From assembly GCA_041671225.1 (NCBI GenBank), contig JBAZBY010000001.1, positions 430,940-494,939 of the forward strand: a stretch of 64,000 nucleotides of DNA, written 5' to 3'. Below the pieces are notes generated by a model. It had not been told where the DNA came from. It worked only from the letters and a program-made list of their open reading frames with translations, and did no database searches. Positions within the stretch are counted from its first letter, which is position 1. Each line of letters begins with the position of its first letter. This document shows, in pieces, positions 4,920-28,364 of this stretch. The DNA comes from Patescibacteria group bacterium (GTDB taxonomy: Bacteria; Patescibacteriota; Patescibacteriia; JBAZBY01). Both the position numbers and the translations under genes were made by a program.

Positions 4920-5450
4920 CTAACGTAGCCAGGGTAATTTCTTCTGGGGATAGCCGAAGAGCACTTGAAGAACCGCGCCAACCACTAGAAGGATCGGATT
5001 CCGCGTCCACCACTGTATGGACTTTCTATAGAAGCCAATCCAACCGATATCACGCCGCAAGGGCCTGAAACCTTCCTTGCGTGTAAGAGAAACGCACTTG
5101 CCGAGCTGCAGAAATGGCTGAGCCACTGGTATAACCTCTGTAACGTGCAGTTTTCTCAGGAATTCAGCAGCCTGGGCCATAACCTCGTTGCTGTCGAGGT
5201 ATTTTCCAGGAATGTGATGTTCCCTTACGATGAGATCAGGTGGAAATAGCATAGCGGCCGCAACTTCCCATTGAGCAATCACAATGGGTCTCTTACCCGT
5301 AAGCATAAGCTCCTGAGCGATGATTCTCTCAGCCGCACGCGCGAGGCGCCTGTTGCAGCGATTTGGTTCTTCACTGGAAAGGGCAAAGGAAAAAACAACA
5401 ATCCCTCTTCTCACGGTATCCTCCTTGTTGTTGATTCCGTGTAGACCCAT
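4920..5450 (-). CDS. DUF218/YdcF-SanA-like protein (tentative)
   Basis: ORF-track ORF 4920..5546 trimmed to the internal Met (MGLHGINN...) because its upstream 96 nt overlap tRNA-Ala. GIVVFSF...GKYLDSNE resembles the DUF218 Rossmann-like fold. No clear SD. Confidence 0.45.
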   Translation of the reverse strand: MGLHGINNKEDTVRRGIVVFSFALSSEEPNRCNRRLARAAERIIAQELMLTGKRPIVIAQWEVAAAMLFPPDLIVREHHIPGKYLDSNEVMAQAAEFLRKLHVTEVIPVAQPFLQLGKCVSLTRKEGFRPLRRDIGWIGFYRKSIQWWTRNPILLVVGAVLQVLFGYPQKKLPWLR

Positions 5451-5490
5451 CCTACTCCATTTATGAATATTGGAAAGATGCTTGAATACA

Positions 5491-5517
5491 AAAAACACCA
5501 CAATATATGGTGTTTTT
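5491..5517 (-). terminator. rho-independent-like hairpin (AACACCA/TGGTGTT) flanked by A/T runs, immediately 3' of the minus-strand tRNA cluster
   Basis: aaaaacaccacaatatatggtgtttttt seen directly. Bidirectional geometry. Confidence 0.6.
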
Positions 5518-5593
5518 TGGTGGACCTGTGGGGACTCGAACCCCATACCTCGGCAATGCGAATGCCGCGCTCTACCAGATGAGCTACAGGCCC
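5518..5593 (-). tRNA. tRNA-Ala (anticodon CGC)
   Basis: Reverse complement GGGCCTGTAGCTCATCTGGTAGAGCGCGGCATTCGCATTGCCGAGGTATGGGGTTCGAGTCCCCACAGGTCCACCA folds as a cloverleaf with G3:U70 Ala identity pair and encoded CCA. Confidence 0.9.
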
Positions 5594-5646
5594 ATAATGG
5601 GCTTCGGCCAGAGGCCGAGATCTTTGCAATACCAGTCCTTGGTTGG

Positions 5647-5722
5647 TGGTGGACCTGCGGGGACTCGAACCCCGTACCTCTTCCATGCCATGGAAGCGCT
5701 CTACCAGATGAGCTACAGGCCC
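5647..5722 (-). tRNA. tRNA-Ala (anticodon GGC)
   Basis: Reverse complement GGGCCTGTAGCTCATCTGGTAGAGCGCTTCCATGGCATGGAAGAGGTACGGGGTTCGAGTCCCCGCAGGTCCACCA. Anticodon loop ATGGCAT, G3:U70, CCA encoded. Confidence 0.9.
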
Positions 5723-5725
5723 TTG

Positions 5726-5801
5726 TGGTGCCCCCGCCAGGAATTGAACCTAGATCTCGACCTTAGGAGTGTCTTGCTCTATCCAATTGAGCTACGGGGG
5801 C
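5726..5801 (-). tRNA. tRNA-Arg (anticodon CCT), anticodon stem only 3 bp Watson-Crick
   Basis: Reverse complement GCCCCCGTAGCTCAATTGGATAGAGCAAGACACTCCTAAGGTCGAGATCTAGGTTCAATTCCTGGCGGGGGCACCA. Good acceptor, D and T arms; loop CTCCTAA; anticodon stem AGACA/GGTCG has A-G mismatches at both ends. Confidence 0.6.
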
Positions 5802-5880
5802 AAGTGCCACCTTTGAATCTAGGGGCTACGGAATAAACATTGTTCCATGTAGAACATTAAATATCGCTAATATTAGCTAA

Positions 5881-9100: not shown

Positions 9101-12100
9101 ATACTCTCTCTATTGGTGCTGGGCGAACCGTGACACTTTCAGGAACGCTGACTATGCCTGGGACCATTTCCGGTGAGGGGCGGCTGACATATCAGAATGC
9201 TGCCGCATTCCCGACCACCGGGACGATATCCTCCATCCTGCGCTTTGACGCGACGAACAACGACCAGACGATGAGCACCCGGGTGTATTCCGGTGCGGTG
9301 GAGATCGTGAACTCCTCGGATGCCGCGGCACGAACCGTGACCATGAGCGCTGGTGACACATACTTCCTGAGCGATCTGACGCTTGCAGCGAACGGAACGC
9401 AGAATGTGACGCTGAATGCTGCGACGAACAGCGCCACTCCATCCGTTGGGGGCAATATTGATTTCAATGGTACAGGAGCAGGGACGGAGATCATTGTGAG
9501 TGGTGCTCAGCAGTGGGTTGTTACAGGCGACGTCGATTTCACCGGAGGGACGTACACTGCGAGTGCTGGGAACACCTTCGCTATGGATGGTATTGGGAAG
9601 GTACTCACTTCAGCTGGCACGACCTTCCAGCATTTCGCGCCATACGGTGACATCACCCTCGCCGATGCGCTGGTGGTTGCCGGGGACGTGACTGCCGCAG
9701 GGAACTTTGACGCCGCGGGCAAAGCGATCACTGTGAGCGGGAGCTGGGATGGTAGCGCCGGTGCATTCACTCCTAATGGTAACATCGTCACATTTGATGC
9801 GACTGCTGCAGGTAAGACCATCATCACCGGTGGCTCGTCGTTCTACGATGTTGATTTCAACAGTGCGAGCGGCGGGTGGACCGTGCAGACCGATGACATG
9901 GTGACGCATGACCTCACACTGACTGACGCAGCGAGTTTCACGCTTGAAAGCGGCCGCACGCTCACCGTGCAAGGCAACTTCACCAACAGCGTCCCGAGCA
10001 CAACAACCTGGACCGGCACCACGTTGTATTTGAACGGCAGCGGTGGGTTGCAGACCATCAACACCAAGGGCAGCGGTGACACGTACGCGACACTGCGGAT
10101 CGGCGCGAGCGAAGACATTGCGATGTGGGATTCCAGCGCCGGGACAGTGACCACTGACGCCGGCGGTTGTCTGCTCTCGCAAGATGATGCAGGGACGGCC
10201 GGACGCCTGAACATCTACGGCACCTGTAACTCACGTGCGAACGAGTATTGGGCGTATGCGACGGATTTTGACGGGACGGCGCTCGGCGGCGCATCGCGGC
10301 AGGCAGACGTGCGCTTTGCAGACGGCGCGAGCTTCACCGTGGATGCAGGGGACACGCTCCAGGTTCTTGGCCAGAGCGCGAGCGCAAACCGCACGGCCAT
10401 TACACGGCAAAGCACTGGCAATTATGGCGTGAGCGTTGACGGAACGCTGTCCGCGCAGTATTACGATTTTGATTATTTGAATGCAAGCGGACTGAACATC
10501 ACATCCACAGCAACCGTGAGCGAACTTTCCGACGGGAGTTATGACAACAATGCTGCCGGCGCTTCGTCCGCCTATATAACGGTTACCGGTAACACATCAG
10601 CCACCACCTTCACCAATATCGTTTTTGATTCTGCTGGCGACGGCGCTGATGCGAACGTCGTCTATAACGTGAACGCTGACGGCAGCGGCATTGACTGGAC
10701 CTTTCTTGCAGCAGCAGGAAATAAGAACGGCGAAAGCTTTGACCGCGAGGTCAATGGCGCCAGCGTTGTGTGGACGGAAATATTCACCGCAGTGAATGAC
10801 GGCCTGACTGGCGATGCTGACTTTTCCAATGACACTGACACCCTTTCTGCCAATTGGGCCATGGATGATGAGACCGGCATCGACCACTACGAATATGCCT
10901 TTGGCACAACCCAAGGCGGAACCGATGTCGTGAACTTTACGAATGCAGGGCTTGCCACGGTTGCAACGGAAAACAACCTTGCGTTGGTGGATGGCACAAC
11001 GTATTACGCGACCATCCGTGCGATCAACGCCGGGGACGACGTGATGGAAGAAGCATCCAGTAATGGCGTGGTGGTGGACACGGCAGCTGCAACATTCTCC
11101 AATATTCAAGATTCCGCAACCACAACAACCATCACCATCACCTGGGACAGCTCAGAAGGGACCACAACCCAGGTTCGTTATGGAATCACGGCCGGGTATG
11201 GCAGTGCAACGATAGCAGACCCCGCTTTGCTCACCGAGCACAGCGCGACCATCAGCGGGCTCAATGAAGACACCACATATCATTACCAGTTGGTCGGCGT
11301 TGACCGCGCAGGCAATGAAACAACATCTGCAGACCGCACCATTGTAACAGATGGCCTTGACCCCACGGTCATCACCAACACGCAATCCACTGTACTTTCA
11401 TCCACATCGGTTCTCATCACGTGGGACACCAACCACCTTGCGGACTCCAAGGTGCGGTATGGGCTCACCACCGCATACGGCCTTGAGGAATACGATGCGA
11501 CGCTCGTTACCAGCCACTCCATGACGCTCACCGGGCTTGAACCCGGAGTGCAGTATCATTACGAAGTGCTTTCCGTGGGCAATACCAGCACGAACGATGC
11601 CGATGCGACATTCATCACCGATGCAGAAGAACCAGAACCAGAGCCTGAACCAGAGGATGAACTGACTCCAGTTGAAAATGTTGAACTCAATGGCGAGGCA
11701 GCACAAACCGGAGATGATTTCAATCTCATCTTTATTCCCAAATCAGGAACTCTTATCTTTATCGGTACCGCAGAGTCGAATGCAACCGTTCGCATTCGTC
11801 TTGATGGATTCTACACGGCCAGCACCACATCAGATGCAGATGGAAATTGGGAGATCATCATCAGCGTAAAAAGCACTCCATTGGAATTTGGCGAACACAT
11901 TGCTGAAGCCCGTGTGCTGAAGAACGGACACAGCACGTCATACGAGCGCATTGCGGAATTCCAGTTGACGTCGGAGCGGTACCTCGCCTCCCCGACTATT
12001 CTTTCACCCGAAGAAGATGAGATTGTTATCTCACTGCGACCCCTTATTACCGGGCTCGCAGAATCAGGCAGCATCATTCATTTCTATATTGATAACGTCT

Positions 12101-12831
12101 TTGTTGGTTCCACAACCACAACGCAGCATGCGTCAGGCACGGGCAGCTTTGCCTTCACGCCGACAGAGGAACTCACTGGCGTCCAGCATACGCTGTATGC
12201 GGTTGCCGTTAGCGGCGACAGCGCCTCCAGAAATTCACCGGATGTGCATTTTACCGTAGAGCTGCCCTTCATCGGCATCACGTTCCTGGATGCATACCTT
12301 GTACAGGCACTGCCGGAACCATATATCGCCTTTGAAGGCATCGGCGCAGGCGGATCGCGCGTCGACTTTTATCTGAACGATGAATTCCTGGATCGCATCG
12401 GCTTGCTCAACGGGCATGATTCCGTGGAGCACTTCACATACAAACTGTATGCCAATAACCTAGTGCCAAAGGATTACACATTATATGCGATCGCATACGA
12501 TGATAGTGGCAAGTCTTCACGAAAATCGAACGTGGTGAGTTTCACCAAGTCCAGTGATGTTGCCGCGTCGATATTAGTGACCAGTCTGGGTAGCGCACCA
12601 GTCCCCGCAACGCCTTCTCCGCAGCCGATATCCCTGCCAACGGTCATTGGAACCGGCCCGGGTGGAACATATACCGTACAGCGCGGAGACAGCTTATGGA
12701 GCATTGCAGAGGCACAGCTTGGCGACGGCTCTCGCTACGACGAAATAATCGCATTGAACCAAGATGCGCATCCGGAGCTGCTCATGGATTCGGGGAGTAT
12801 TTACAGCGGCTGGGTTCTGCGGCTGCCCTAG
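6139..12831 (+). CDS. giant (2230 aa) cell-surface protein: N-terminal TM anchor, phage-tail-collar-like repeats, repeated beta-helix-like modules, FN3 and Ig-like domains, C-terminal LysM
   Basis: Single ORF. Collar-like segments PAGWSCQSCGSGDFYQKFPRGAATYGGTGG and HTH...LPPYRDV repeats. FN3-like TWDSSEGTTTQVRYG and ITWDTNHLADSKVRYG. EPEPEPEPE linker. C-terminal LysM GTYTVQRGDSLWSIAEAQLGDGSRYDEIIALN. Track start 6139 is GTG; alternative ATG at 6166. Confidence 0.85.
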   Translation: MIFFVKIKKMNWAAMFRHLKEQRDACLARAQAGGLFVKAIGYIACFVLDIVLVFALIPFSITASPTASFQRVARFSPDKGFIDSYDKHLKYYRASVGTALLAGVGVSLQIIFALATFGILSFSNPTQVNAVDGRMLAFWDASGPVPAGWSCQSCGSGDFYQKFPRGAATYGGTGGGTTHTHAMSYLSMSGTISSPLSLIGGAVVQASKLHTHTYIYDQTMNAGTSLPPYRDMEVIRYDTTGAPATIPAGVILMFDAAPSGSWTRYTDQDGSFIYGENDVTGTGGSETHNHTNVGYTVDASAGNAGIELGDGLGAGSFDAHTHTVSGATTNTVSTLPPYLDVLLYKATGETALPDGAIAMWDDTPADAAWTVNSGASQLFNEKFLRGNSSYTGIAAGSATHGHSNLASVTSGPSGGANNAGSGTKSGASYSHTHSISVTIGAATNYLPPYRDVIIAQYSTDITISGTIRQSNESTAYDCSANNLTVNVSVNGGANSTATCTAADGSFSVSASQPSSAGDPIVVSVDSGESVQATTVTLAADTTSAITDLDLYENRLIVRHEDAGPITNAKLATGDNGDAGIRYGVASSNLTVDNNIELHVWTGDTFIPGGIVTTQGSADFHIDDSATATLATTGNTIAGDAVVDTGATLNLNANTTIDGGAIATAGTGTVATSGTPTVTLHGTGSIGGGSGAIAFYNLTIGDASAAATTMDSDVSIANVLNVDTSDSMTIAASKTVTLGASATVTLNGSILGDGRLIYANISTTFPTSGIISSVLRFDSSSGNITIPARTYGGDVELYSNSGTIRIAPIGTAPGQTITIGGDYIIIADGTADIYSNNLTYAPIMLITGGIDFTGIGSGTERIEGGTSNWTITGGIDFTGGSCGCTTSDFTFNGGGTLNFASNTVDDLTITGTYTVTSGSLAGVNGTLDLTGSTTTLTNTTIWMRGSTGTIIGAGNAFSTLSIGNGSDIITVADSDFSVTANLNILFATDTLSIGAGRTVTLSGTLTMPGTISGEGRLTYQNAAAFPTTGTISSILRFDATNNDQTMSTRVYSGAVEIVNSSDAAARTVTMSAGDTYFLSDLTLAANGTQNVTLNAATNSATPSVGGNIDFNGTGAGTEIIVSGAQQWVVTGDVDFTGGTYTASAGNTFAMDGIGKVLTSAGTTFQHFAPYGDITLADALVVAGDVTAAGNFDAAGKAITVSGSWDGSAGAFTPNGNIVTFDATAAGKTIITGGSSFYDVDFNSASGGWTVQTDDMVTHDLTLTDAASFTLESGRTLTVQGNFTNSVPSTTTWTGTTLYLNGSGGLQTINTKGSGDTYATLRIGASEDIAMWDSSAGTVTTDAGGCLLSQDDAGTAGRLNIYGTCNSRANEYWAYATDFDGTALGGASRQADVRFADGASFTVDAGDTLQVLGQSASANRTAITRQSTGNYGVSVDGTLSAQYYDFDYLNASGLNITSTATVSELSDGSYDNNAAGASSAYITVTGNTSATTFTNIVFDSAGDGADANVVYNVNADGSGIDWTFLAAAGNKNGESFDREVNGASVVWTEIFTAVNDGLTGDADFSNDTDTLSANWAMDDETGIDHYEYAFGTTQGGTDVVNFTNAGLATVATENNLALVDGTTYYATIRAINAGDDVMEEASSNGVVVDTAAATFSNIQDSATTTTITITWDSSEGTTTQVRYGITAGYGSATIADPALLTEHSATISGLNEDTTYHYQLVGVDRAGNETTSADRTIVTDGLDPTVITNTQSTVLSSTSVLITWDTNHLADSKVRYGLTTAYGLEEYDATLVTSHSMTLTGLEPGVQYHYEVLSVGNTSTNDADATFITDAEEPEPEPEPEDELTPVENVELNGEAAQTGDDFNLIFIPKSGTLIFIGTAESNATVRIRLDGFYTASTTSDADGNWEIIISVKSTPLEFGEHIAEARVLKNGHSTSYERIAEFQLTSERYLASPTILSPEEDEIVISLRPLITGLAESGSIIHFYIDNVFVGSTTTTQHASGTGSFAFTPTEELTGVQHTLYAVAVSGDSASRNSPDVHFTVELPFIGITFLDAYLVQALPEPYIAFEGIGAGGSRVDFYLNDEFLDRIGLLNGHDSVEHFTYKLYANNLVPKDYTLYAIAYDDSGKSSRKSNVVSFTKSSDVAASILVTSLGSAPVPATPSPQPISLPTVIGTGPGGTYTVQRGDSLWSIAEAQLGDGSRYDEIIALNQDAHPELLMDSGSIYSGWVLRLP

Positions 12832-18429: not shown

Positions 18430-19548
18430 ATGAATAAAGGATTTGCTATCTTACCGGTGGTGTTTATTGTCGTTGCCGTCCTTCTTGGCGGCGTGGTTGG
18501 GTATGCAGTGTATTCTTTGCCTGGTCTCACGCAGAATGATGCAGCAGCACCAGCGCAGGTGATTGCCAATGGCAATACGAATACCGGCCTGCTCGGCGGA
18601 GATAGTGATGAACATGGGTGCATAGGGTCTGCGGGGTATTCGTGGTGCGAGGCAAAACAAAAGTGCTTACGTATTTGGGAAGAAGATTGCACAACTACGA
18701 CGAACACCAATACTACTACTGACCCAATCGCAGACTGGGAGACGTATATGAATACCGCCTTTGATTATTCTCTTCAGTACCCTACGAGCTGGGAAGCGCC
18801 TTCTGCCGATGCGGAGATTGCTGAATTTGGCGTAGGGGTAAGACAGCCTTTTTGGATCAAAAAAGTAGATACAATAAGCGAAACATTGGTTGTCCCTGGG
18901 AGCAACATGAAGATTATTATTGATGGAAATGAGGCAACTCAGCAGAAAGAGGGTGGAGAAAGCACATATGTAGTGACATATTTTTCACAAATGACTGGCT
19001 ATCTTCAAGTTGGTTATGATGAATCTCTCAGTGAAGGCAACGACGTTCTCTTGTCAATTGATTTTGATTCCACTGCCGACTGGGCGACATATACAAATAG
19101 CGATATGGGGTACCGTGTCCGTTACCCGGCCAATTGGACAATAACTGAAACCAATAAAACTTCAGAGATAACCACAGGTCAAACGGTTCAGTACGTCACG
19201 ATAGCAAACGCAACTGATACATACTCTCTCCATCTTGGAGTGAAAAGCACCAGCCAATCAAATATTGATATCTGGTATCGCACAGGAATCGGCGCGGGCG
19301 ATTTTGAAGCCGGTGAGTCGGTGGCGATGGCAGGTACAAGTATCCAAACGACAAAATTGGTCTATCAAGGAAAGACTGTTGAAGTGTTTTTCAATCCAGC
19401 GGATGCCTCACCCAGCCAGGTCGTTATCGGAACGCATGCCGTATCGGCTTACTTGCACAATAATTCAGAAAACAGCGCCGATATTTTAGGATCAGACGAA
19501 TATTCGGTTGCCAAAGACATTGTGGGTACATTGGAATTTACGGACTAA
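18430..19548 (+). CDS. paralog 1 of 4: N-terminal TM anchor (MNKGFAILPVVFIVVAVLLGG), 4-Cys module, two PsbP-like DWxTY-N...YP..W repeats
   Basis: 372 aa. HGCIGSAGYSWCEAKQKCLRIWEEDC; repeats DWETYMNTAFDYSLQYPTSWE and ADWATYTNSDMGYRVRYPANW. Confidence 0.7.
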   Translation: MNKGFAILPVVFIVVAVLLGGVVGYAVYSLPGLTQNDAAAPAQVIANGNTNTGLLGGDSDEHGCIGSAGYSWCEAKQKCLRIWEEDCTTTTNTNTTTDPIADWETYMNTAFDYSLQYPTSWEAPSADAEIAEFGVGVRQPFWIKKVDTISETLVVPGSNMKIIIDGNEATQQKEGGESTYVVTYFSQMTGYLQVGYDESLSEGNDVLLSIDFDSTADWATYTNSDMGYRVRYPANWTITETNKTSEITTGQTVQYVTIANATDTYSLHLGVKSTSQSNIDIWYRTGIGAGDFEAGESVAMAGTSIQTTKLVYQGKTVEVFFNPADASPSQVVIGTHAVSAYLHNNSENSADILGSDEYSVAKDIVGTLEFTD

Positions 19549-19558
19549 TACAAACACC

Positions 19559-20713
19559 ATGCTCCAACGCGGCATCGCTCTTCTTCCCATCCTTCTCATC
19601 ATCGGCGGCGTTGTATTGGCCGGCATTCTTGGATTTGTGATATGGCAACTGCCGAGCATGACCAACACCCAAACAACGAATACAGCAAATATCGTGGTCA
19701 ACACGAATGCTGTTGCTTGCACACAGGAAGCGAAGCTCTGCCCGGACGGTTCTGCTGTTGGCCGCACTGGGCCAAACTGCGAGTTCGCTGCATGCCCGGG
19801 GGAGACGAATACGAATATTTCTACCGCAGACTGGAAGACATATGCGAATAATGAATTTGATTTTACATTTCAGTATCCAAATTCCTGGATCGTCGAAAAT
19901 TGGAAAGATATTGGACAATTTGTCAATGGAGATGGAAGAACTTTTTCATTTATCTGGGATGAAATTATCATCCGCGAAGGAGATGTGCGGGAAAACACTA
20001 CTGGTAGCAGTGCGCTTAGTTTTGGGTTCACTGATATTTCGGCGGAGTTATTTATTGGACGGTATAATAGTGATGGTGATACCGCATCTCAGGTGATAGC
20101 GCCTGTATATATTGAAACCGTTGCGGGAAGAACTGTGAAGCATGTGACTGCAGAAACTGCAATTGGATTGCCACGTGAGTACCTGTTTTTTGCTCCGTAT
20201 TCCTCCGGTTTTATTATTTCTTACGATGATTTTGACAGTACACATAAACAAATTCTCTCTTCATTGACGTTTACGGAACAGGATCCAACCGCATGGTGGG
20301 GTACATATACAAATGAGCAATATGGATTTACATTGCGTTATCCATCTATGTTTAGTGTGTTTGAAGAATCAACCCTATTGAAAGGTGAGCAGGAATATCC
20401 ATCTATTGTCTTTGCACCAAGCAATGACCTTGGGGTTTTCTCAATAACAATATATCCGCGAAAAAGTAATGAAACCGGACTTGCTGCATATTTGAGCGCT
20501 GTGCCGACCGATCTTCATGCGTCAGAACAGACAAGTGTGTCTGTTGGCGGCGCTGAGGGTATTAGGATTGATCCTGTTCCAGGATTGGCACCAGCAAAGG
20601 CAGTTTTTCTTGCCAAGGACAATTTCGCGTTTGAGTTAAATACAAGCAGTAGACCTGGACTTACTGATGAGGAATATAATAGCATCCTCTCTACCTTCCA
20701 ATTCACAAATTAG
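19559..20713 (+). CDS. paralog 2 of 4: pilin-like N-terminus MLQRGIALLPILLIIGGVVLAGILGF, 4-Cys module VACTQEAKLCPDGSAVGRTGPNCEFAACPGE, PsbP-like repeats
   Basis: Track ORF 19508 trimmed to the Met after the stop of paralog 1. Repeats ADWKTYANNEFDFTFQYPNSW and AWWGTYTNEQYGFTLRYPSMF. Confidence 0.7.
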   Translation: MLQRGIALLPILLIIGGVVLAGILGFVIWQLPSMTNTQTTNTANIVVNTNAVACTQEAKLCPDGSAVGRTGPNCEFAACPGETNTNISTADWKTYANNEFDFTFQYPNSWIVENWKDIGQFVNGDGRTFSFIWDEIIIREGDVRENTTGSSALSFGFTDISAELFIGRYNSDGDTASQVIAPVYIETVAGRTVKHVTAETAIGLPREYLFFAPYSSGFIISYDDFDSTHKQILSSLTFTEQDPTAWWGTYTNEQYGFTLRYPSMFSVFEESTLLKGEQEYPSIVFAPSNDLGVFSITIYPRKSNETGLAAYLSAVPTDLHASEQTSVSVGGAEGIRIDPVPGLAPAKAVFLAKDNFAFELNTSSRPGLTDEEYNSILSTFQFTN

Positions 20714-20716
20714 GGT

Positions 20717-22054
20717 ATGACCCAACGCGGATTCGCTTTTCTTCCCATCCTTCTCATCATCGGCGGCGTTGTATTGGTCGGCATTCTTGGATTTGTGATA
20801 TGGCAACTGCCGAGCATGACCAACACCGGAAACACGAACACGGTGAATGTTGTGGTCAATGCGAATACTGTCGCCTGCACGGAAGAAGCAAAGCTCTGCC
20901 CGGACGGTTCTGCTGTTGGCCGCACCGGGCCAAACTGCGAGTTCGCTGCATGCCCGGGGGAGAATACCAATACCTCTGTTGATCTGACGGCCGATTGGGA
21001 AACATATACGAATGATACTTATGGGTATTCGATTCGATATCCAAAAGGGTGGGTATATGATGCTATGTTTCTTGAATCCGTGGTTTTTAATTCCGAATCT
21101 ACTGGTCAATGGAGGCTTTCAATCGATATGGAACCAACCGCGAGATCTGTGCAGGAAAATATTGATACTCCGATCCACAATAGCCTAGGAGAAGCCACGC
21201 ATCTTCAAGGAGATGAATGGGAAAGAAGCGCTCGCACCATCGATGGGCAACAAGCAATACGAATAGTTGTCCGTGAACTCCATCCTGGTGACTATGGGGA
21301 TACAAAAACACTGGTCGTCAATGACGGCTTCCTTTATACCTTAAGCCAAGGAACAGGTTCAGATCCTATTGAATCGGCCATGGTCGATAGTTTGAGATTT
21401 ACATCCCGCAAGACAATCGCAGATTGGAAGACATATACGAATGACGAATTCGGTTTTTCATTCAAATATCCTGCTGATTATCAACTTGAAACAGGCTCCG
21501 GCGATGTTCAACTCATTGCTCGCTCGTTCCACCCGCAAGGGCTCTTAGCCTTTGGAGTGTGGCGCGGAGAACAAGAGGACTGTGAGTGCGAGCTCATTAC
21601 GTATAATGGAAAAACCATCACCGTAGGTGATTCCCAATATAATGATTCATGGGAAACGGATTATATGTGGTCCACCTTCCAATTCACGGACGTCACGACC
21701 ACTCAAGCAACAGATGATGACTCTGTATCATTAAGTCCGGAGGATCAGCAAGCGCTGGAATCAGTCGCGTTTGCAGTGGTAGATCAAAAAACCAGTGGGC
21801 AATGGGATAAGAGAATAGATGTTGGGCGCGTAGATGCATCGCAAAATGCGGTTGTAGGGTACTGGTGGGCGCGCGACCGCTGGCAATGGATCGCTTGGAG
21901 ACAAGCAGGAGGCGATTGGAATATTCTGGTAAGTCTGGACGGATTTGATTGTACAGAATTAGAAAGTCTCCCAACGCAATATGAGAGTTTTTTCCATAAC
22001 GTCATATATATATCGTCTGGCGAAAAGTATTGCTTTTCACACACATCTCGCTAA
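20717..22054 (+). CDS. paralog 3 of 4: N-terminus MTQRGFAFLPILLIIGGVVLVGILGF, same 4-Cys module, PsbP-like repeats, 445 aa
   Basis: 5' ~110 nt and the Cys-module coding stretch are nearly identical at nucleotide level to paralog 2. Confidence 0.7.
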   Translation: MTQRGFAFLPILLIIGGVVLVGILGFVIWQLPSMTNTGNTNTVNVVVNANTVACTEEAKLCPDGSAVGRTGPNCEFAACPGENTNTSVDLTADWETYTNDTYGYSIRYPKGWVYDAMFLESVVFNSESTGQWRLSIDMEPTARSVQENIDTPIHNSLGEATHLQGDEWERSARTIDGQQAIRIVVRELHPGDYGDTKTLVVNDGFLYTLSQGTGSDPIESAMVDSLRFTSRKTIADWKTYTNDEFGFSFKYPADYQLETGSGDVQLIARSFHPQGLLAFGVWRGEQEDCECELITYNGKTITVGDSQYNDSWETDYMWSTFQFTDVTTTQATDDDSVSLSPEDQQALESVAFAVVDQKTSGQWDKRIDVGRVDASQNAVVGYWWARDRWQWIAWRQAGGDWNILVSLDGFDCTELESLPTQYESFFHNVIYISSGEKYCFSHTSR

Positions 22055-22090
22055 AGAAATAACAGGCACGTCGGAATTCACAATGAACAT

Positions 22091-22711
22091 ATGACCCAAC
22101 GCGGATTCGCTTTTCTTCCCATCCTTCTCGTCATCGTCGCGTTGATTCTCGCAGGAGTACTGAGTTTTGGTTTGTATTTGCTTTCTGGTGCTGGCAATGA
22201 TAATGGTATCAACACGAACATTGGCACTACTACCGTGGTAAAAAATTTTGATGAATGTGCAGCCGCGGGGTATCCGGTTGGCGAAAGCTACCCGCGCCAG
22301 TGCTTTGCAAATAGGCAGACGTTTGTGGAGGATATTGCTAACACGAATAACAACGCCACCACAGGACCTGCTGTGTGTGGTGATGGCGTGTGCGCCGTGG
22401 GTGAGGCAGAATGTATTCCGAGCGAGTGCGGTGAGGGTTGGTGTACAGATGATTGTAGCGTGCCACTCTGTCCGGAAGATTGTACGAATGAGGTAAGATT
22501 TTCCTTGCCATTAGAAACAGCAGAAGAGGTGCAGGCCTTTCTGGAGACGAAAAATAATCCTGTCGATTGTTTAAATACTCAATTTTCAGCTGATTGGAAT
22601 GAAGCGGGGTATTGGGATGTCACATGTCATAGTAACGAAATGAGTATGTCTGTTGCGGTTGAGCCAGATGGTGACTATCATGACGCGCCTCGATTTCTAG
22701 GGACAAATTAG
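22091..22711 (+). CDS. paralog 4 of 4 (206 aa): same N-terminus MTQRGFAFLPILLVIVALILAG, Cys-rich (12 Cys) extracellular domain
   Basis: First 40 nt identical to paralog 3. CGDGVCAVGEAECIPSECGEGWCTDDCSVPLCPEDC. Confidence 0.65.
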   Translation: MTQRGFAFLPILLVIVALILAGVLSFGLYLLSGAGNDNGINTNIGTTTVVKNFDECAAAGYPVGESYPRQCFANRQTFVEDIANTNNNATTGPAVCGDGVCAVGEAECIPSECGEGWCTDDCSVPLCPEDCTNEVRFSLPLETAEEVQAFLETKNNPVDCLNTQFSADWNEAGYWDVTCHSNEMSMSVAVEPDGDYHDAPRFLGTN

Positions 22712-22809: not shown

Positions 22810-24339
22810 ATGGAATTCAGCATATTATGGTTCGCGATTCTCGCGGCCTCGCTTGCTGGTGGCGTGCTTGCAGGGTATTGGTTCCGCAAAACCTGGGCCA
22901 TTCGAGAAGCACAATCCATCGAAGCAAAAGCGCAAACACTCATAGAAAAGGCAAAGGCAGAGTCAAAGGAACATCTGCTCGATGCAAAAGAAAAGGCCAG
23001 TAAAGTAATTGAAGAAGCGCAACGCGAAGAAAAAGAACTTCGGGCGGAGCTTCGCAATCAACAGCAACGACTTGAACAACGCGAGTCGAAGTTTGATTCC
23101 AAGCTAATGGAGGTGGAAGGTAAGCAAGAAGAGCTTGCCAAAAAGGCCACAAAGCTTGAAGAACTCAAAGGGAAAATCCGTGAGATTCAGGAAATGCAGG
23201 AAAAGCGGTTAGAGGAAATCGCAAGTTTATCTCGGGAGGAAGCAACAGAAAAGCTCATGATCAAGGTGGAGGAGAGCAGCAAAGAAGCGCTGACATCCCG
23301 CCTTAAAAAGATGGATCAGGAGAGTTCTGATGTGATCGATAAGAAGGCCCGCGATCTTCTTTCCACCGCCATTCAGCGCGTGGTGCATAGCCACGTGACA
23401 GAAACGACCACCACCGTCGTGCAGCTTCCAAGTGAAGACATGAAGGGTCGCATCATCGGGCGCGAGGGCCGCAACATCAAAGCGCTTGAAACGCTCACCG
23501 GTGTTGAAATTGTTGTTGATGACACGCCGGATACCATCGTGATTTCTGGCTTCAATCCGATTCGTCGGCACTTAGCAAAGCGCGCATTAGAGAAACTGAT
23601 GTCTGATGGTCGCATTCACCCTGCCCGCATTGAAGAGACGGTAAAGGAAGCAAAGAAGGATCTCACGCGCGATATTCAAAAAGCCGGTGAAGATGCCGTG
23701 TATGATGTTGGCGTGACGGGGCTCAACCCGCAGCTCGTGCAGGTGCTCGGTCGTTTGAAGTACCGCACAAGTTACGGTCAGAATGTTCTCTTGCACTCCA
23801 TTGAAGTGGCATTACTCTCTGGGCTTATTGCCGCACAACTCGGCGCAGACAGCGCAAAAGCAAAGAAGGCCGGCTTGCTGCATGACATCGGTAAAGCAAT
23901 CAACCATGAAGTCGGCGGTGCGCATACGACCGTCGGATATGAAATTTTAAAGAAGTTCGGCGTGTCGGAAGATATTGCACAAGTCGCCGTGGGTCACCAC
24001 GAAGATCATGTTGAGGATCTTACCACTATTATCGTGAAGACAGCGGACGCCATCAGCGGTGGCCGCCCAGGCGCACGTAAGGATACCTATGAGAACTACG
24101 TGCAACGCTTGGATGAGATCGAAACACTTGCCAAGAACTTTGAGGGCGTAGAAAAGGTCTATGCAATTCAGGCTGGCCGCGAGGTTCGCGTGTTTGTGGA
24201 ACCAACCAAGATTGATGATTGGAAGGCGCATGAACTGGCAAAGGACATTGCCAAGAGCATTGAGCAGCAGCTGCAATACCCCGGTGAAATCAAGGTGAAT
24301 GTGATCCGTGAGACGCGGGCAATAGAATATGCCCGCTAA
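22810..24339 (+). CDS. rny: ribonuclease Y (N-terminal TM, KH and HD domains)
   Basis: 509 aa. N-terminal anchor FAILAASLAGGVLAGYWF, charged coiled coil, KH region GREGRNIKALE, HD motif GLLHDIGKA. Confidence 0.92.
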   Translation: MEFSILWFAILAASLAGGVLAGYWFRKTWAIREAQSIEAKAQTLIEKAKAESKEHLLDAKEKASKVIEEAQREEKELRAELRNQQQRLEQRESKFDSKLMEVEGKQEELAKKATKLEELKGKIREIQEMQEKRLEEIASLSREEATEKLMIKVEESSKEALTSRLKKMDQESSDVIDKKARDLLSTAIQRVVHSHVTETTTTVVQLPSEDMKGRIIGREGRNIKALETLTGVEIVVDDTPDTIVISGFNPIRRHLAKRALEKLMSDGRIHPARIEETVKEAKKDLTRDIQKAGEDAVYDVGVTGLNPQLVQVLGRLKYRTSYGQNVLLHSIEVALLSGLIAAQLGADSAKAKKAGLLHDIGKAINHEVGGAHTTVGYEILKKFGVSEDIAQVAVGHHEDHVEDLTTIIVKTADAISGGRPGARKDTYENYVQRLDEIETLAKNFEGVEKVYAIQAGREVRVFVEPTKIDDWKAHELAKDIAKSIEQQLQYPGEIKVNVIRETRAIEYAR

Positions 24340-24365
24340 CATGGTATACTCATAGAGGAGGATCT

Positions 24366-24704
24366 ATGAACCGTGCAGAGCTTGCAGAAAAGATCGCCGA
24401 GAAGATCGGCATCACTAAAAAGCAGGCAGAAGATGTACTGCGTTCTTTTGAGTCCCACACAATCAAAGCCTTGCAGCAGGGTCAAGAAGTGACGCTTGCG
24501 GGTTTTGGTACCTTTTCAGCGCGTGTGCGAAAAGAACGCGGCGGCGTGAATCCCCGCAATCCAAAAGAGCGTATTCAGATCCCAACCGTAACGGTACCAA
24601 AGTTCAAAGCAGGCAAGAACCTGAAGGATGAGCTGAAGTCCGGCAAAGCAGGATCCGCAGGAAAGAGCGAGGATCAGGACGTGCTGCCGGTTGAAGAGGC
24701 ATAA
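24366..24704 (+). CDS. hup: HU/IHF-family nucleoid DNA-binding protein
   Basis: RAELAEKIAEKIGITKKQAEDVL...LAGFGTFSARVRKERGGVNPRNPKERIQIP; SD agaggagg. Confidence 0.9.
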   Translation: MNRAELAEKIAEKIGITKKQAEDVLRSFESHTIKALQQGQEVTLAGFGTFSARVRKERGGVNPRNPKERIQIPTVTVPKFKAGKNLKDELKSGKAGSAGKSEDQDVLPVEEA

Positions 24705-24727: not shown

Positions 24728-24913
24728 ATGATGGATGTGAATATTCATAAGCGCGGCGGCGGAGACGCTGTCTATGGGCTCGGTTTTATTGGCGCTGCCA
24801 TTTATTATATTTCTGTGGCTACCGGTTTTTGGGTCGGTGTTTTGGGTGTTCTCAAAGCGATCATTTGGCCCATCTTTTTTGTCTACGAGGCGTTGAAGTT
24901 TTTTGCGCAATAA
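24728..24913 (+). CDS. 61-aa small membrane protein; its last 15 codons lie inside the 88-bp direct repeat
   Basis: MMDVNIHKRGGGDAVYGLGFIGAAIYYISVATGFWVGVLGVLKAIIWPIFFVYEALKFFAQ with two hydrophobic helices. Confidence 0.5.
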   Translation: MMDVNIHKRGGGDAVYGLGFIGAAIYYISVATGFWVGVLGVLKAIIWPIFFVYEALKFFAQ

Positions 24914-24954
24914 TAAGAGGGGCGCAGCGAGGTAAACAAAAAACACTCCGCAGA
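24867..24954 (+). repeat. direct repeat copy 1 (88 bp) = 3' end of the small membrane-protein gene plus downstream hairpin
   Basis: ggcccatcttttttgtctacgaggcgttgaagttttttgcgcaataataagaggggcgcagcgaggtaaacaaaaaacactccgcaga recurs at 27537..27625 with one extra A. Confidence 0.9.
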
Positions 24955-25036
24955 GCATGCAGGGTGTTTTTGGGTATGCAAATAAAAAGAGGTGCTACCC
25001 GGAACGCGATGTCCGGATAGCACCTCGGTTGTGCAT

Positions 25037-26548
25037 TTAGAGTCCCCAGTTTTTGGTCCGGTCCGCAATGTGCATGCAGTCCGGACCATTCACCTCCTTC
25101 ATCCACCGGAGCCGAAGCTTGGTGAGTTGTATGGGAGTCAGGCCGCCAACAGGGAATGCCGAGCGCTCGTGGCTCGTGCGCAGGTCGAGATCCGGGAACA
25201 CGGTCTTCAGGTATGCGTATGCGGCAGTTCCGGGGATGGCGGTATAGATGAATAACATCACATATGCCAATCCCGCTTGCTTCAGTCGCTTCGCATACCA
25301 AACCGTCCGCTCCATATCCGCGAGCGACTCCTCGAAGCCGCCGTTGTTGCCTTTGAATCCGAGCATGAACCCGCCCACCGCTTCGATCCCCTTGTGTGCA
25401 GCGTAGCGCACGATCTTCTCGGCCGCGTCCGCCTCTGCATTCACATGCGGCTTGTGGCTTTTGGCAAGGGACTGCGGATTGGCCGATTCAATTGCCAGGT
25501 AGAACCGGTAGCAGCCGCTTTCCGCGAGTGCATCAAGGATGTGCTCGTATGAAAGGCAGAAGCCCGGCTTCATGAACTTGAACATGGAGAGTCCGCCTTC
25601 CTCGAACCACGCCATGTCGTATTTCTGCAGGATCGCCGCAACTGCCAGCGCGCGCGGGATGTCAGCGAAGAACATGTCGTCCTCTACGATGACTTCGTTG
25701 ACGCCGATGGCCTTCAGTAATGCAACTTCCCGCTCAAATCGCGCAAGTCCGTAGTAACGGATTTTCCCAGCCATGATATGGATATGACAGAAGTCGCACT
25801 TGAGCGGGCAGCCTTCACTGGACAGGATGTATGCATGCCGCCCCGTTGTCCGGAAACGACTGCCGCCCGTGTGCTCAGGAGTGTCATACATCGGATGGAG
25901 TGGAATTTCCAGGCGCCGTGGTGCAAGGACGTCGAGCGTGGGAATGAACAGACGGTCCGGATTGTGCACCAGAACGCCATGTTCATTCTTATAGCTCACA
26001 CCCGCAACCATTGTTGTATGGTGCGAAGAAATACCCTCCTCGATGGAGCGACATAGCTCAGGGAACGTTACAAGACCTTCGCCCCGGATCACCATGTCCA
26101 CACAAGGACTTTTCATCACGTCGCGACAATCACCGGTGGCGTGAGAGCCGCCCTCGGCAATGATCGCGTTGGGGTATGCACGCCTCATTATGTGAGCGAC
26201 ACGCTCTACATTACTTGCCTGGTTGCTGAACAGGCTCGTGATGCCGCAGACATCCGGAGTAAAGCGCTCAAGAACCTCTTCAAGTTGCGCGTCGGTCAGG
26301 CCGTAGCGAACCGTGCCGTCTTCCTGTGCAGTGTACTGGTCGTATGCGGACATACAGGCGTCGATGAAAACGACGTTGAATCCCGCAGCCACCAACTCAC
26401 TTGCAATAAGTTCCGCCCCGATCGGACAGCCAGCGCGGCGCGTTTCATATGTCGGCCAGAAGCTGTAAAAGGGGGCGGCCATCATGATAGTGAGTCGCCG
26501 CATGTCCTGCCAAAAGGCAACTCCCTGCGTAAATAGCTCGACCCGCAC
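25037..26548 (-). CDS. cobalamin(B12)-binding-domain radical SAM enzyme (class B-like)
   Basis: 503 aa. N-terminal B12-binding Rossmann-like region (LTIMMAAPFYSF...VVFIDACMS) and radical SAM cluster motif CPLKCDFC (CxxxCxxC). GTG start preceded by AAGGAAGG. About 60% GC versus ~50% around it. Confidence 0.8.
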   Translation of the reverse strand: MRVELFTQGVAFWQDMRRLTIMMAAPFYSFWPTYETRRAGCPIGAELIASELVAAGFNVVFIDACMSAYDQYTAQEDGTVRYGLTDAQLEEVLERFTPDVCGITSLFSNQASNVERVAHIMRRAYPNAIIAEGGSHATGDCRDVMKSPCVDMVIRGEGLVTFPELCRSIEEGISSHHTTMVAGVSYKNEHGVLVHNPDRLFIPTLDVLAPRRLEIPLHPMYDTPEHTGGSRFRTTGRHAYILSSEGCPLKCDFCHIHIMAGKIRYYGLARFEREVALLKAIGVNEVIVEDDMFFADIPRALAVAAILQKYDMAWFEEGGLSMFKFMKPGFCLSYEHILDALAESGCYRFYLAIESANPQSLAKSHKPHVNAEADAAEKIVRYAAHKGIEAVGGFMLGFKGNNGGFEESLADMERTVWYAKRLKQAGLAYVMLFIYTAIPGTAAYAYLKTVFPDLDLRTSHERSAFPVGGLTPIQLTKLRLRWMKEVNGPDCMHIADRTKNWGL

Positions 26549-26755
26549 TTTTGCACCTTCCTTTCCTATGTAGGTTGTTAAGTTGCGTGTTCAGACTGCA
26601 TTCGAGTTGAACAGGGGAATATACTACATATTTTCATAAATGTCAATATTATTCGTCATTTTTGACGAGTAATAAATGCTTATAATATAAAACAATATTG
26701 ACAATTATTCTTTCTTGATATATAATGACGACGAATAATTCGTCATATTGTCTAT
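26549..26755. promoter_or_regulatory. divergent promoter region with two palindromic operators (TCGTCAttttTGACGA at 26653..26668; ATGACGAcgaataattcgTCAT at 26725..26746)
   Basis: Plus-strand TTGACA(26698)-17-TATAAT(26721) promoter for the regulator overlaps operator 2. Minus-strand TTGACA-17-TATATT promoter (plus 26646..26618) for the radical SAM gene has operator 1 just upstream of its -35. Confidence 0.55.
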
Positions 26756-27496
26756 ATGAAAATAGAGCAAATCCTTGAAAAATTCGGTTTTTCTACGAAT
26801 GAGTCAAAAGTGTATTTGTCCTCCCTTGAAATGGGCCTGGCCTCGGCGCAAGATATTGCAAAAAAGGCTGGCCTAAAACGCACGACGACGTATTCGGTAT
26901 TGTCATACTTAGTGGATCGCGGAGTGGTCGGAAAGACCATCGTCAAGAATAAAACGCGGTTCGTTGCGGAACCACCGGACAAGCTCTTAAATTTAGTGAA
27001 CGAAGTCAAAGAAAGCATTACGGATGTGCTTCCGCAACTGGAGGCGATCTATAACACGAACGACGCGAAGCCGAAGATCACATTCTATGAAGGCGAAAGT
27101 GCGATCCATAATGTATATGAAGACACGCTCAAAGAGAAGCCAATGGAAATCTTGGAATGGAACACCAATGCATTTTTTGACCGTTTTCCAAAAGAGTATA
27201 ACTACATTGAAAAACGGGCCGCATTAGGGATCAAGGCACGGCGTATCTCAAGTAAAGGTTCTTTATGGGATACCACGCATAAACGAATGGACAAAATGGA
27301 ATTGGCAGAAACGATCGGTGTGCAAAAGGAACTTTTTGATCCGAAGATCGAAGTGAATATCTACAACAATAAGGTCGCATTCATGAATTACGCGGAAAAT
27401 ATGTCCATCATCATCGAGAGTAAGGCGATCGCGGATGCGATGCGACAAGCATATGAACTTTCGTGGCTTGGAGCAAAAGTGAGTTCGGCCAGGTAA
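26756..27496 (+). CDS. TrmB-family HTH transcriptional regulator
   Basis: 246 aa. N-terminal winged helix MKIEQILEKFGFSTNESKVYLSSLEMGLASAQDIAKKAGLKRTTTYSVLSYLVDRG typical of TrmB-like regulators. AT-rich (~42% GC). Confidence 0.7.
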   Translation: MKIEQILEKFGFSTNESKVYLSSLEMGLASAQDIAKKAGLKRTTTYSVLSYLVDRGVVGKTIVKNKTRFVAEPPDKLLNLVNEVKESITDVLPQLEAIYNTNDAKPKITFYEGESAIHNVYEDTLKEKPMEILEWNTNAFFDRFPKEYNYIEKRAALGIKARRISSKGSLWDTTHKRMDKMELAETIGVQKELFDPKIEVNIYNNKVAFMNYAENMSIIIESKAIADAMRQAYELSWLGAKVSSAR

Positions 27497-27536
27497 TAAC
27501 CCTTCCTACATTCCAGCATCAACAGTCCTTTGCTCG

Positions 27537-27625
27537 GGCCCATCTTTTTTGTCTACGAGGCGTTGAAGTTTTTTGCGCAATAATAAGAGGGGCGCAGCGA
27601 GGTAAACAAAAAAACACTCCGCAGA
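27537..27625 (+). repeat. direct repeat copy 2 (89 bp); promoter- and start-less remnant of the small-gene 3' end plus intact terminator hairpin
   Basis: Same sequence as 24867..24954. In frame it encodes ...LGPIFFVYEALKFFAQ* with no upstream Met. Followed by AACACTCCgcagaacgtGGAGTGTTTTTT. Confidence 0.9.
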
Positions 27626-27688
27626 ACGTGGAGTGTTTTTTGTGGGTTATACGCGTCGATGAGTGACATGAGAATTGCATGTTGTCTC

Positions 27689-28012
27689 TCAGCGGTTTTG
27701 GTGTGTGTTTTTTTGATTTGAGATTTGAATGATGGCGTCGAAGTTGTCCGCCTCTAACGTCTTGTTTTTTCTCTCAAATCCACACACAGCGCAGCGATGG
27801 AGAATGATATATCCTCCTCGCTTCGTCTCCACTCCAACAGGTTCCATAAGCCCCTGACATGCTGCCTGACGATCGCCAGGATTCATGTCAACGTGTTTGC
27901 TCCATAGACACTGCGGACAGTGGTTGGTATAGCCGCTCCCGCGTACAAAGAAACCACATCGTTCGCAGGTGAAGTCCTCTCTGGTACGTTGGAATTTTTT
28001 TGGCTGGGTCAT
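27689..28012 (-). CDS. RNHCP-domain zinc-ribbon protein
   Basis: 107 aa. CERCG...YTNHCPQC...CAVCG gives four Cys pairs and the RNHCP motif. Confidence 0.75.
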   Translation of the reverse strand: MTQPKKFQRTREDFTCERCGFFVRGSGYTNHCPQCLWSKHVDMNPGDRQAACQGLMEPVGVETKRGGYIILHRCAVCGFERKNKTLEADNFDAIIQISNQKNTHQNR

Positions 28013-28127: not shown

Positions 28128-28204
28128 TGGTGGGCCGTGAGGGATTTGAACCCCCGACACCCAGATTAAGAGTCTGGTGTTCTACCAGGCTGAACTAACG
28201 GCCC
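28128..28204 (-). tRNA. tRNA-Lys (anticodon CTT)
   Basis: Reverse complement GGGCCGTTAGTTCAGCCTGGTAGAACACCAGACTCTTAATCTGGGTGTCGGGGGTTCAAATCCCTCACGGCCCACCA. Clean cloverleaf, CCA encoded. Confidence 0.9.
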
Positions 28205-28286
28205 ATATCGTTTGCGGGAACCCCATGAGATTAGCTCACAAAGTCGCTTTGCTAGTATACGTATTTTCTCTTTCTCTGCAAGCTTC

Positions 28287-28364
28287 TGGTGCGCCCGGAG
28301 GGATTTGAACCCCCAACCTTGTGGTCCGAAGCCACACACTCTATCCAATTGAGCTACGGGCGCC
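28287..28364 (-). tRNA. tRNA-Arg (anticodon TCG)
   Basis: Reverse complement GGCGCCCGTAGCTCAATTGGATAGAGTGTGTGGCTTCGGACCACAAGGTTGGGGGTTCAAATCCCTCCGGGCGCACCA. Loop CTTCGGA. Confidence 0.85.

Follow-up and report, generated by a model that had tools for sequence, protein, structure and literature searches.

How does a two-gene cassette without an integrase come to lie between two copies of the 3′ end of a small membrane-protein gene? The question is raised by a 2.67-kb segment in the genome of a Patescibacteria group bacterium (GenBank assembly GCA_041671225.1, contig JBAZBY010000001.1, positions 430,940 to 494,939 of the forward strand). We refer to this whole stretch of 64,000 nucleotides (nt) as the window, and all coordinates are window positions unless a locus is named. 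The segment carries genes for a B12-binding radical S-adenosylmethionine (SAM) enzyme and for a TrmB-type regulator, and one of the two repeat copies overlaps the end of an intact gene for a protein of 61 amino acids (aa), here termed small61 (Table 1). The results described below point to a small integrated islet that is probably one copy of a patchily distributed, relocating module made up of trmB and the radical SAM gene. Patescibacteria have tiny genomes with few recognized mobile elements; genomic islands and transfer between members of the phylum have been documented, and a good part of their gene content varies through exchange within the phylum (PMC12455944). The locus would represent a case, resolved to the base pair, in which a small cargo entered a tiny genome without an integrase of its own while the target gene was kept active.

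A first, sequence-only reading of this DNA had described 88-bp direct repeats around a 2.6-kb cassette, with the end of a 61-aa open reading frame (ORF) in copy 1 and the same C-terminal peptide, in frame and without a start codon, in copy 2. The repeat search of the window bore this description out. An exact 77-nt direct repeat occurs twice at a spacing of 2670 nt; copy 2 then has one additional A (A6 in copy 1, A7 in copy 2), beyond which the copies are identical over another 11 bases, so that they measure 88 and 89 nt, respectively. At up to three mismatches, the 77-mer has exactly two copies in the 64 kb, and none was obtained in 100 shuffles. Aligned with blastn, the copies are 93.7% identical over 111 columns, in agreement with a global alignment. 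The differences are distributed unevenly: the first 89 columns contain a single one, the following 22 contain six (Fisher p = 2e-4). On its left side, the repeat ends sharply, as the flanks match at only 19 of 60 positions in the global alignment. In small61, copy 1 sets in at the second position of codon 47 and contains two of the three bases for Trp47 and another 14 codons (14.7 codons in total), as well as the stop codon. Copy 2 encodes GPIFFVYEALKFFAQ followed by a stop codon, with Trp47 changed to Gly and no start upstream. The segment thus lies between direct repeats, and the 3′ end of an intact target gene is part of one of them, which is the geometry of attachment (att) sites.

Neither copy of the 77-mer had a match in 42 loci from other genomes and contigs (blastn-short), and the repeat matched this organism only. 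Given the two window copies and the lack of matches in these 42 loci, we rejected a generic intergenic repeat of the repetitive extragenic palindrome or miniature inverted-repeat transposable element (MITE) type, which the sequence-only reading had named as an alternative. The repeat search revealed no terminal inverted repeats at the islet ends. Visual inspection of the repeat for a dif-like Xer site revealed one arm similar to TGCGCA(A)TAA and no second arm. As a side observation, the small61 tail in copy 2 continues the reading frame of trmB, from which it is separated only by two stop codons (TAA TAA) and 12 codons (27494-27583). At a chance of one in three, the shared frame is probably a coincidence; readthrough of trmB would add a hydrophobic tail to the regulator.

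The presumed target is a real, widely conserved gene, with 1455 homologues of small61 (E ≤ 1e-3) in Patescibacteria, Bacteroidales, and Clostridia that share the tail WP[VI]FFVYEALKFF; no Pfam or NCBIfam model matched it. Homologues with 78-87% identity are located in unrelated contexts and are uninformative on the empty site. Both repeat copies run into a terminator hairpin, and the hairpin that had been noted behind copy 2 was supported by its predicted fold (Table 1). The two hairpins have a common left arm and different right arms, and trmB has no terminator of its own before copy 2. In any single-crossover (Campbell) model, the right arm of hairpin 1 joins element DNA and that of hairpin 2 joins host DNA, which requires that about 110 nt homologous to the small61 tail and terminator were brought in by the element. 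The graded divergence on the right side and the different functional right arms indicate two diverged homologues and not a fresh duplication of the target.

These features can be accommodated by a Campbell-type insertion. A circle of the cassette would have carried, between the 3′ ends of trmB and of the radical SAM gene, the homologue of about 110 nt that comprises the last 15 codons of small61, the stop codon, and the terminator. A single reciprocal crossover in the identical stretch of 77-88 nt would insert this circle. After insertion, small61 would end in the element-borne tail and hairpin 1 and would stay intact, and the original tail together with the bidirectional hairpin 2 would be displaced 2.67 kb downstream, where this hairpin would now also terminate trmB. 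The sharp left edge of the repeat fits this model, because it would correspond to the end of the element-borne homology. The model also fits with hairpin 2 being a good bidirectional terminator in the reconstructed site and with the dependence of trmB on a repeat-borne hairpin. Hairpin 2 would originally have been the terminator common to small61 and the convergent gene for an RNHCP-domain protein, and the reconstructed empty site (small61, bidirectional terminator, convergent RNHCP gene) is an ordinary arrangement. As to the crossover itself, a site-specific recombinase supplied in trans is a tentative candidate, and RecA acting on the 77-88 nt of identity, e.g., after DNA uptake, a somewhat less likely one. 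The 22-nt tRNA duplication at a sister copy of the module, described below, favors a recombinase in trans; in the window, the identical stretch is also long enough for an insertion by RecA.

The closest available genome is in line with a gain of the cassette at this position. RNase Y of this nearest relative (sequence P0171) is 80% identical to the RNase Y encoded in the window, and all others are at or below 63%. Its 14.7-kb contig (L042; labels of this kind denote loci on genomes, contigs, or unitigs) is syntenic with the window over genes for a giant fn3 protein, bactofilin, DAGK, IF2, RbfA, DHH, ClpP, RNase Y, and HU. After the HU gene, L042 has a small61 pseudogene (12707-12830) in which the 5′ part and a single 3′ tail are recognizable and an internal deletion of about 62 nt (62 columns) removes the transmembrane core of a protein that is otherwise very highly conserved. 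Within this contig, there is no radical SAM gene, trmB, or RNHCP gene at this spot. These data show that the position of small61 after HU is ancestral and that the cassette is absent from the matching interval in the closest available genome. Genes for tRNA-Arg(TCG) and tRNA-Lys(CTT) follow about 440 nt beyond the pseudogene, and the contig stops 24 nt past tRNA-Lys; the pair is inverted relative to that in the window. The neighborhood of small61 and HU is a rearrangement hotspot. Separately, we noted that L042 carries a YmdB gene between rny and hup (11536-12339), which is missing in the window (24339-24366).

The same pair of genes recurs in other genomes in changing surroundings. The radical SAM proteins make up a tight clade comprising about 40 protein clusters (51-77% identity), whose next relatives do not exceed 29%, and all clusters carrying a source name are assigned to Patescibacteria or Parcubacteria. 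In scans of genome and metagenome collections and in contig look-ups, the module was present in more than 15 distinct loci. An orthologue of TrmB (60-82% identical) is encoded divergently from the radical SAM gene in at least 14 loci, and the promoter layout and two palindromes between the genes hold their position in nearly all of the 14 loci compared. The pair looks like a self-regulated unit, because the gene pair, the promoter layout, and the palindromes are conserved across loci. In at least 14 loci, the radical SAM gene is followed by a Trbp111/CsaA-type tRNA-binding gene (PF01588), which is absent from the copy in the window and from the whole window. Genes outside the module are unrelated in almost every locus. 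This variability is evident even between close relatives such as L046 and L050 (IF2 92%, DHH 82% identical), in which the cassette lies on opposite sides of infB: it is upstream of infB in L050 and between infB and rbfA in L046, where it splits these two genes, which lie side by side in L050, L042, and the window. Likewise, the radical SAM and tRNA-binding genes of L019 and L046 share 88% DNA identity, and their flanks are different.

Flanking repeats above chance were found in three lineages, namely the window, L034, and L019/L020/L018. L034 (FLOH01000015, 831 kb) displays the canonical geometry of an island at a tRNA gene: an exact copy of the 22-nt 3′ end of tRNA-Asp lies in direct orientation 3.6 kb downstream of the intact tRNA gene (4152-4173 and 7754-7775; the chance maximum in shuffles was 14 nt). 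The 3.6-kb islet between them holds trmB, the radical SAM gene, and a 247-aa ORF, and no integrase. The 247-aa ORF was considered as a hidden recombinase and rejected, as it had no Pfam, PADLOC, PHROG, or PDB match. A second direct repeat of 21 nt (TTTTGGGCACTATATGGTCAC) lies just inside each end (4291-4311 and 7630-7650) and might represent arm-type binding sites. In two further loci, L028 and L052, the cassette adjoins the 3′ end of tRNA-His. A different structure was observed in the closest relatives of the radical SAM gene, where perfect 387-nt inverted repeats enclose a three-gene cassette of trmB, the radical SAM gene, and the tRNA-binding gene (L019 1090-1476, L020 3012-3398); a third strain has a repeat of this type at 94% identity (L018 2038-2425). 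These inverted repeats are GC-rich and contain neither an ORF nor an Rfam match. The segment in L019 and L020 could be invertible or a composite MITE-like structure. A search for structured RNA in the direct repeat of the window, in the 387-nt inverted repeat of L019/L020, and in the flanks retrieved tRNAs as the only Rfam matches.

How else could the repeats around the segment have arisen? As the source is a metagenome-assembled genome and assemblers often use a k-mer size of 77, it has to be considered that two strains with a 77-mer in common were joined into a chimera. However, the identical structure is present in a 147-kb MEGAHIT k141 contig (ENA ERZ27249449), for which k-mers spanning the whole repeat and unique flanks are required. 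By exact look-ups at the protein level, small61 and the core of the radical SAM protein were also located on a 1.03-Mb NCBI/JGI contig. Two Logan unitigs from another run, SRR6484324, are consistent with the structure: L003, a loop of 2653 bp between the copies, and L045 both break inside the repeat. Moreover, the similarity of the copies does not stop at 77 nt but goes on beyond an indel and into diverged bases. An assembly artefact is thus very unlikely, and the chimeric join in particular is scarcely tenable. Direct repeats that flank an insert could also reflect a target-site duplication by a transposase or fill-in of a staggered break. Target duplications of insertion sequences and transposons measure about 2-15 bp, and the 88-110 nt seen here are far beyond the known range. 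There is no transposase according to Pfam and there are no terminal inverted repeats, and the non-uniform similarity of the copies (p = 2e-4) is unlike that of a fresh duplication, which makes this origin highly improbable.

Two other scenarios concern the history of the locus. The cassette might be old at this position, with copy 2 as the leftover of a second small61 paralogue or of a segmental duplication that lost its 5′ part by deletion. The small size of small61 and its occurrence in many contexts are in line with such an origin in situ, as are the frequent local rearrangements around the module (L046 compared with L050) and the presence of a PilT orthologue and an HU-family gene near the cassette in L052, since the window has PilT and HU as well. 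Yet at least two events would be needed, including a deletion endpoint that leaves just the tail, and no residual similarity is present upstream of copy 2. Furthermore, this scenario does not explain 88 identical nt beside a terminator arm with about 30% divergence, and the nearest relative has one small61 tail and no cassette there; we consider it quite unlikely. Alternatively, a larger prophage, integrative and conjugative element (ICE), or integrative and mobilizable element (IME) might have entered the 3′ end of small61 by its own integrase and decayed to two cargo genes and its att sites, which would make the islet a true cis-mobilizable element (CIME). The missing integrase and the att-like repeats are accounted for equally well in this way, such a route to CIMEs has been described (PMC5704250), and L034 is a comparable integrase-less islet at a tRNA gene. 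On the other hand, the margins are very tight (57 and 40 nt) and free of pseudogene fragments or spare DNA, no remnants of ICE, IME, or phage genes were found inside the islet, and PHROG matches are lacking. In addition, many genomes contain the same compact unit of two or three genes, and its surroundings there are free of phage or ICE genes. Decay of a larger element is hence an unlikely source of the islet.

Several observations weigh against the insertion of a relocating module as well. No true empty site was found in the genomes compared. L042 is an imperfect substitute, since it derives from a different species and its locus is rearranged (YmdB, no RNHCP gene, inverted tRNAs). Exact look-ups of small61, the radical SAM protein, the RNHCP protein, and HU, by which a conspecific without the cassette could have been recognized, returned the same genome only, always with the cassette. 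Neither excision, nor a circular form, nor presence/absence polymorphism in the population was seen, and the 2653-bp loop unitig gives no sign of a free circle, as the integrated form by itself would already yield it. Searches of the IMG/VR, phage, and plasmid collections retrieved no cassette, with radical SAM proteins of at most 28% identity as the only matches on plasmids. Most copies of the module lack flanking repeats above chance, so repeat-mediated mobility is no general property of the module. The small61 tail is not associated with any other cassette copy, as a six-frame motif search of all loci retrieved this genome and genuine small61 genes only. The perfect 77-nt identity next to about 30% divergence in the following 22 nt calls for an extra assumption, i.e., a conversion tract or a very recent donor. 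The deviation in GC content, which the sequence-only reading had put at about 60% for the radical SAM gene and 42% for the regulator against a background of about 50%, has the direction that was claimed and is less extreme (56.9, 44.2, and 49.9%, respectively, the last value for the whole window). In most host genomes, the radical SAM gene is 4-10 points above its flanks in GC; the contrast therefore looks like a property of the gene family and is weak evidence, and no proof, of a recent arrival. Finally, no integrase turned up in the cassette, among the families listed (25 of 56) for the 37 ORFs of the window, or in the 10 ORFs viewed fully, in a non-exhaustive scan of 64 kb of about 1 Mb.

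Overall, the insertion of the cassette into the 3′ end of small61, with a replacement 3′ end brought along, is the best reading of the locus, as the sequence-only reading had proposed. It draws on the cassette-free interval in L042, the changing surroundings of the module, the islet in L034, and the arms of the hairpins; on the other side stand the lack of a true empty site, of a circle, and of polymorphism. An islet that is flanked by att-type repeats, restores the 3′ end of its target, and has no integrase belongs to an already known type. It resembles the element e14 and phage 21 in icd of Escherichia coli, which are inserted in the 3′ end of a protein gene, carry a diverged homologue of this 3′ end, keep the gene intact, and leave a displaced, start-less tail at the far end; the replacement 3′ end of icd carried by e14 is icdC (PMC13626634). 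However, e14 is the 15-kb remnant of a prophage that encodes an integrase and is excised under SOS conditions, whereas the islet measures 2.67 kb and has two cargo genes and no recombinase. Moreover, the terminator is part of the duplicated piece of the islet, which has a 61-aa gene as its target. CIMEs have lost their integrase and keep attL and attR (PMC5704250). The islet shows this hallmark, as the 3′ end of the target is contained in its attL- and attR-like repeats and it has no integrase or transfer genes, like the CIMEs of Firmicutes (PMC5704250). In contrast to the islet, CIMEs are decay products of ICEs or IMEs and are mobilized when a cognate ICE integrates alongside; such remnants are lacking in the islet, and the host phylum is different. 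The sister copy in L034, where the tRNA-Asp gene is intact and 22 nt of its 3′ end are repeated at the far border, resembles islands at tRNA and tmRNA genes. The islet in the window differs from these by its protein-coding target and its longer identity block (77-88 nt), and there is no integrase in either the window islet or L034. As an att-type scar is a textbook phenomenon, the value of the locus lies in the cargo family and in integrase-less islets of the candidate phyla radiation (CPR) and not in a new principle.

Table 1. Position of the islet, its repeats, genes, and regulatory elements, and of the flanking genes in the 64,000-nt window.
Feature	Position	Strand	Description
small61	24728-24913	+	gene for a 61-aa two-helix membrane protein; putative insertion target; last 14.7 codons and stop inside copy 1
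Repeat copy 1 (attL-like)	24867-24954	+	88 nt; exact part 24867-24943; weaker homology to ~24975
Terminator hairpin 1	24939-24971	+	A-run, interrupted stem, U-run; fold -17.5 kcal/mol, z = -2.1
Terminator of the radical SAM gene	24989-25026	-	15-bp stem, then T5; fold -29.3 kcal/mol, z = -7.3
Class-B (B12-binding) radical SAM gene	25037-26548	-	503 aa, GTG start, CxxxCxxC at C247/C251/C254
Promoter of the radical SAM gene	26646 to 26618	-	TTGACA-17-TATATT; promoter scan, 11/12 consensus positions
Operator O2 (predicted)	26653-26668		TCGTCA-N4-TGACGA; just upstream of the -35 box of the radical SAM gene
trmB promoter	26698-26726	+	TTGACA-17-TATAAT; promoter scan, 12/12 consensus positions
Operator O1 (predicted)	26725-26746		ATGACGACGAATAATTCGTCAT; palindrome TGACGA-N8-TCGTCA; overlaps trmB -10 box and +1
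TrmB-type winged-helix regulator	26756-27496	+	246 aa; divergent from the radical SAM gene
Repeat copy 2 (attR-like)	27537-27625	+	89 nt; exact part 27537-27613; weaker homology to ~27647; start-less small61 tail
Terminator hairpin 2	27606-27643	+	A7, 8-bp stem, U6; bidirectional; fold -26.9 kcal/mol, z = -4.4
RNHCP-domain gene	27689-28012	-	Pfam PF12647, E = 8e-30; right-hand flank
tRNA-Lys(CTT) and tRNA-Arg(TCG)	28128-28363	-	context; 3′ ends toward the islet

The predicted proteins of the cargo were compared with family models and structures. Pfam confirmed the earlier assignment of a B12-binding radical SAM enzyme and a TrmB-like regulator, and these are the only two ORFs with support inside the islet. 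The non-coding margins comprise 57 nt between the stop codon of the radical SAM gene and the end of the repeat homology, mostly occupied by the terminator of this gene, and 40 nt between the trmB stop codon and copy 2. The enzyme matched PF02310 (57.9 bits) and PF04055 (55.2 bits), both above the cut-offs, and C247, C251, and C254 are invariant in 32 aligned sequences. Judged from these matches, it belongs to the class-B radical SAM superfamily, an assignment that is established at the superfamily level only. In the comparison with class-B families that the sequence-only reading had proposed, all 18 matches to NCBIfam equivalogs (Sden_1168 P-methyltransferase, KedN5, HpnJ, BchE, PhpK, and MgmA among them) were far below the cut-offs; the best, to the Sden_1168 P-methyltransferase, reached 99.6 bits compared to a cut-off of 575. 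The AlphaFold (AF2) model (predicted local distance difference test score of 90.7) had TsrM, AprD4, MgmA, OxsB, and CysS as top Foldseek matches, at 13-17% identity and E values of 1e-17 to 1e-20. Matches to PDB at the sequence level were weak, with TokK as the best (1e-8). The enzyme thus has the N-terminal B12-binding Rossmann domain and the radical SAM core with the CxxxCxxC motif in common with TsrM, TokK, CysS, MgmA, OxsB, and AprD4, but differs from the named class-B enzymes by its low identity (13-17%), its scores below every NCBIfam cut-off, and its position in a separate clade. A literature search on Patescibacteria with B12 radical SAM enzymes retrieved no papers, and neither PADLOC nor PHROGs gave any meaningful indication of membership in a defense system or among phage proteins.

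The regulator has an N-terminal TrmB-type winged helix-turn-helix by its Pfam match (PF01978, 51.6 bits compared to a cut-off of 25.6, residues 7-74), and its sequence matches in PDB span the helix-turn-helix only. The C-terminal sugar-binding effector domain of archaeal TrmB and TrmBL1 was not found in it: the NCBIfam equivalogs of TrmB and TrmBL1 scored 23-32 bits compared to cut-offs of 500-650, with matches that are mainly N-terminal (the longest covers residues 2-168), and the regulator has 246 aa whereas the archaeal proteins have about 340 aa. The intergenic region between trmB and the radical SAM gene is 207 nt in length and contains two divergent near-consensus promoters, each of which is accompanied by one of the TGACGA/TCGTCA palindromes. 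We propose that the regulator binds both palindromes as a repressor, and expression of the radical SAM gene would then be gated by a ligand. The locus in this way defines a conserved, putatively self-regulated module, in which a B12-type radical SAM enzyme is combined with a TrmB-type repressor, two operators, and, in most cases, a tRNA-binding protein.

The Trbp111/CsaA-type partner and the nearness of copies to tRNA genes hint at an RNA-related or chaperoned substrate of the enzyme. One could go further and picture the trmB and radical SAM genes, with or without the Trbp111-type gene, as a miniature recombinase-less CPR cassette that spreads by means of a carried 3′ end and terminator of a tRNA gene or small61, through RecA or a recombinase in trans and without damage to the target, with a cargo that is perhaps the first cobalamin-type radical SAM enzyme acting on tRNA. 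We regard this extended picture as unlikely to hold as a whole; the idea of a tRNA-acting cargo is supported indirectly by the Trbp111/CsaA-type gene that follows in at least 14 loci and by the several copies that adjoin tRNA genes. In the window, where two tRNA genes lie beyond the right-hand flank, an island anchored at tRNA-Lys was rejected, as no partial copy of tRNA-Lys is present elsewhere in the window.

Additional observations were made on other copies of the module. In about 15 of the about 40 clusters of radical SAM proteins, the longest contig measures just 2.1-3.0 kb, i.e., the size of the cassette. This suggests that assemblies often break at the cassette borders, owing to repeats or strain-variable flanks, an effect inseparable from the general shortness of metagenomic contigs; terminal repeats or circularity were not detected in the short cassette-only contigs. 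TrmB-family paralogues with 26-30% identity to the cassette regulator are encoded within a few kb of the cassette in L011 (3640-4443 and 10442-11182), L021/L050, and L046 (11332-12084), and one such paralogue, which adjoins infB, is 89% identical between L046 and L050. In L022, a gene for a 96-aa GIY-YIG nuclease, flanked by 30-nt direct repeats that contain a palindrome, is inserted in the promoter region between trmB and the radical SAM gene (5367-5815). The radical SAM gene of L022 has an in-frame TAA (7006-7008), from which we conclude that this copy of the cassette is decaying.

Apart from the islet, the window contains a further repetitive region. Between clpP and rny, we found a block of four tandem paralogues (18430-22711), which is absent from L042, where rny directly follows clpP. 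The encoded proteins have a pilin-like N-terminus (MTQRGFAFLPILL...) and PsbP_2-like domains, and the 5′ ends of their genes share direct repeats of 243 nt and 76 nt at 88-90% identity.

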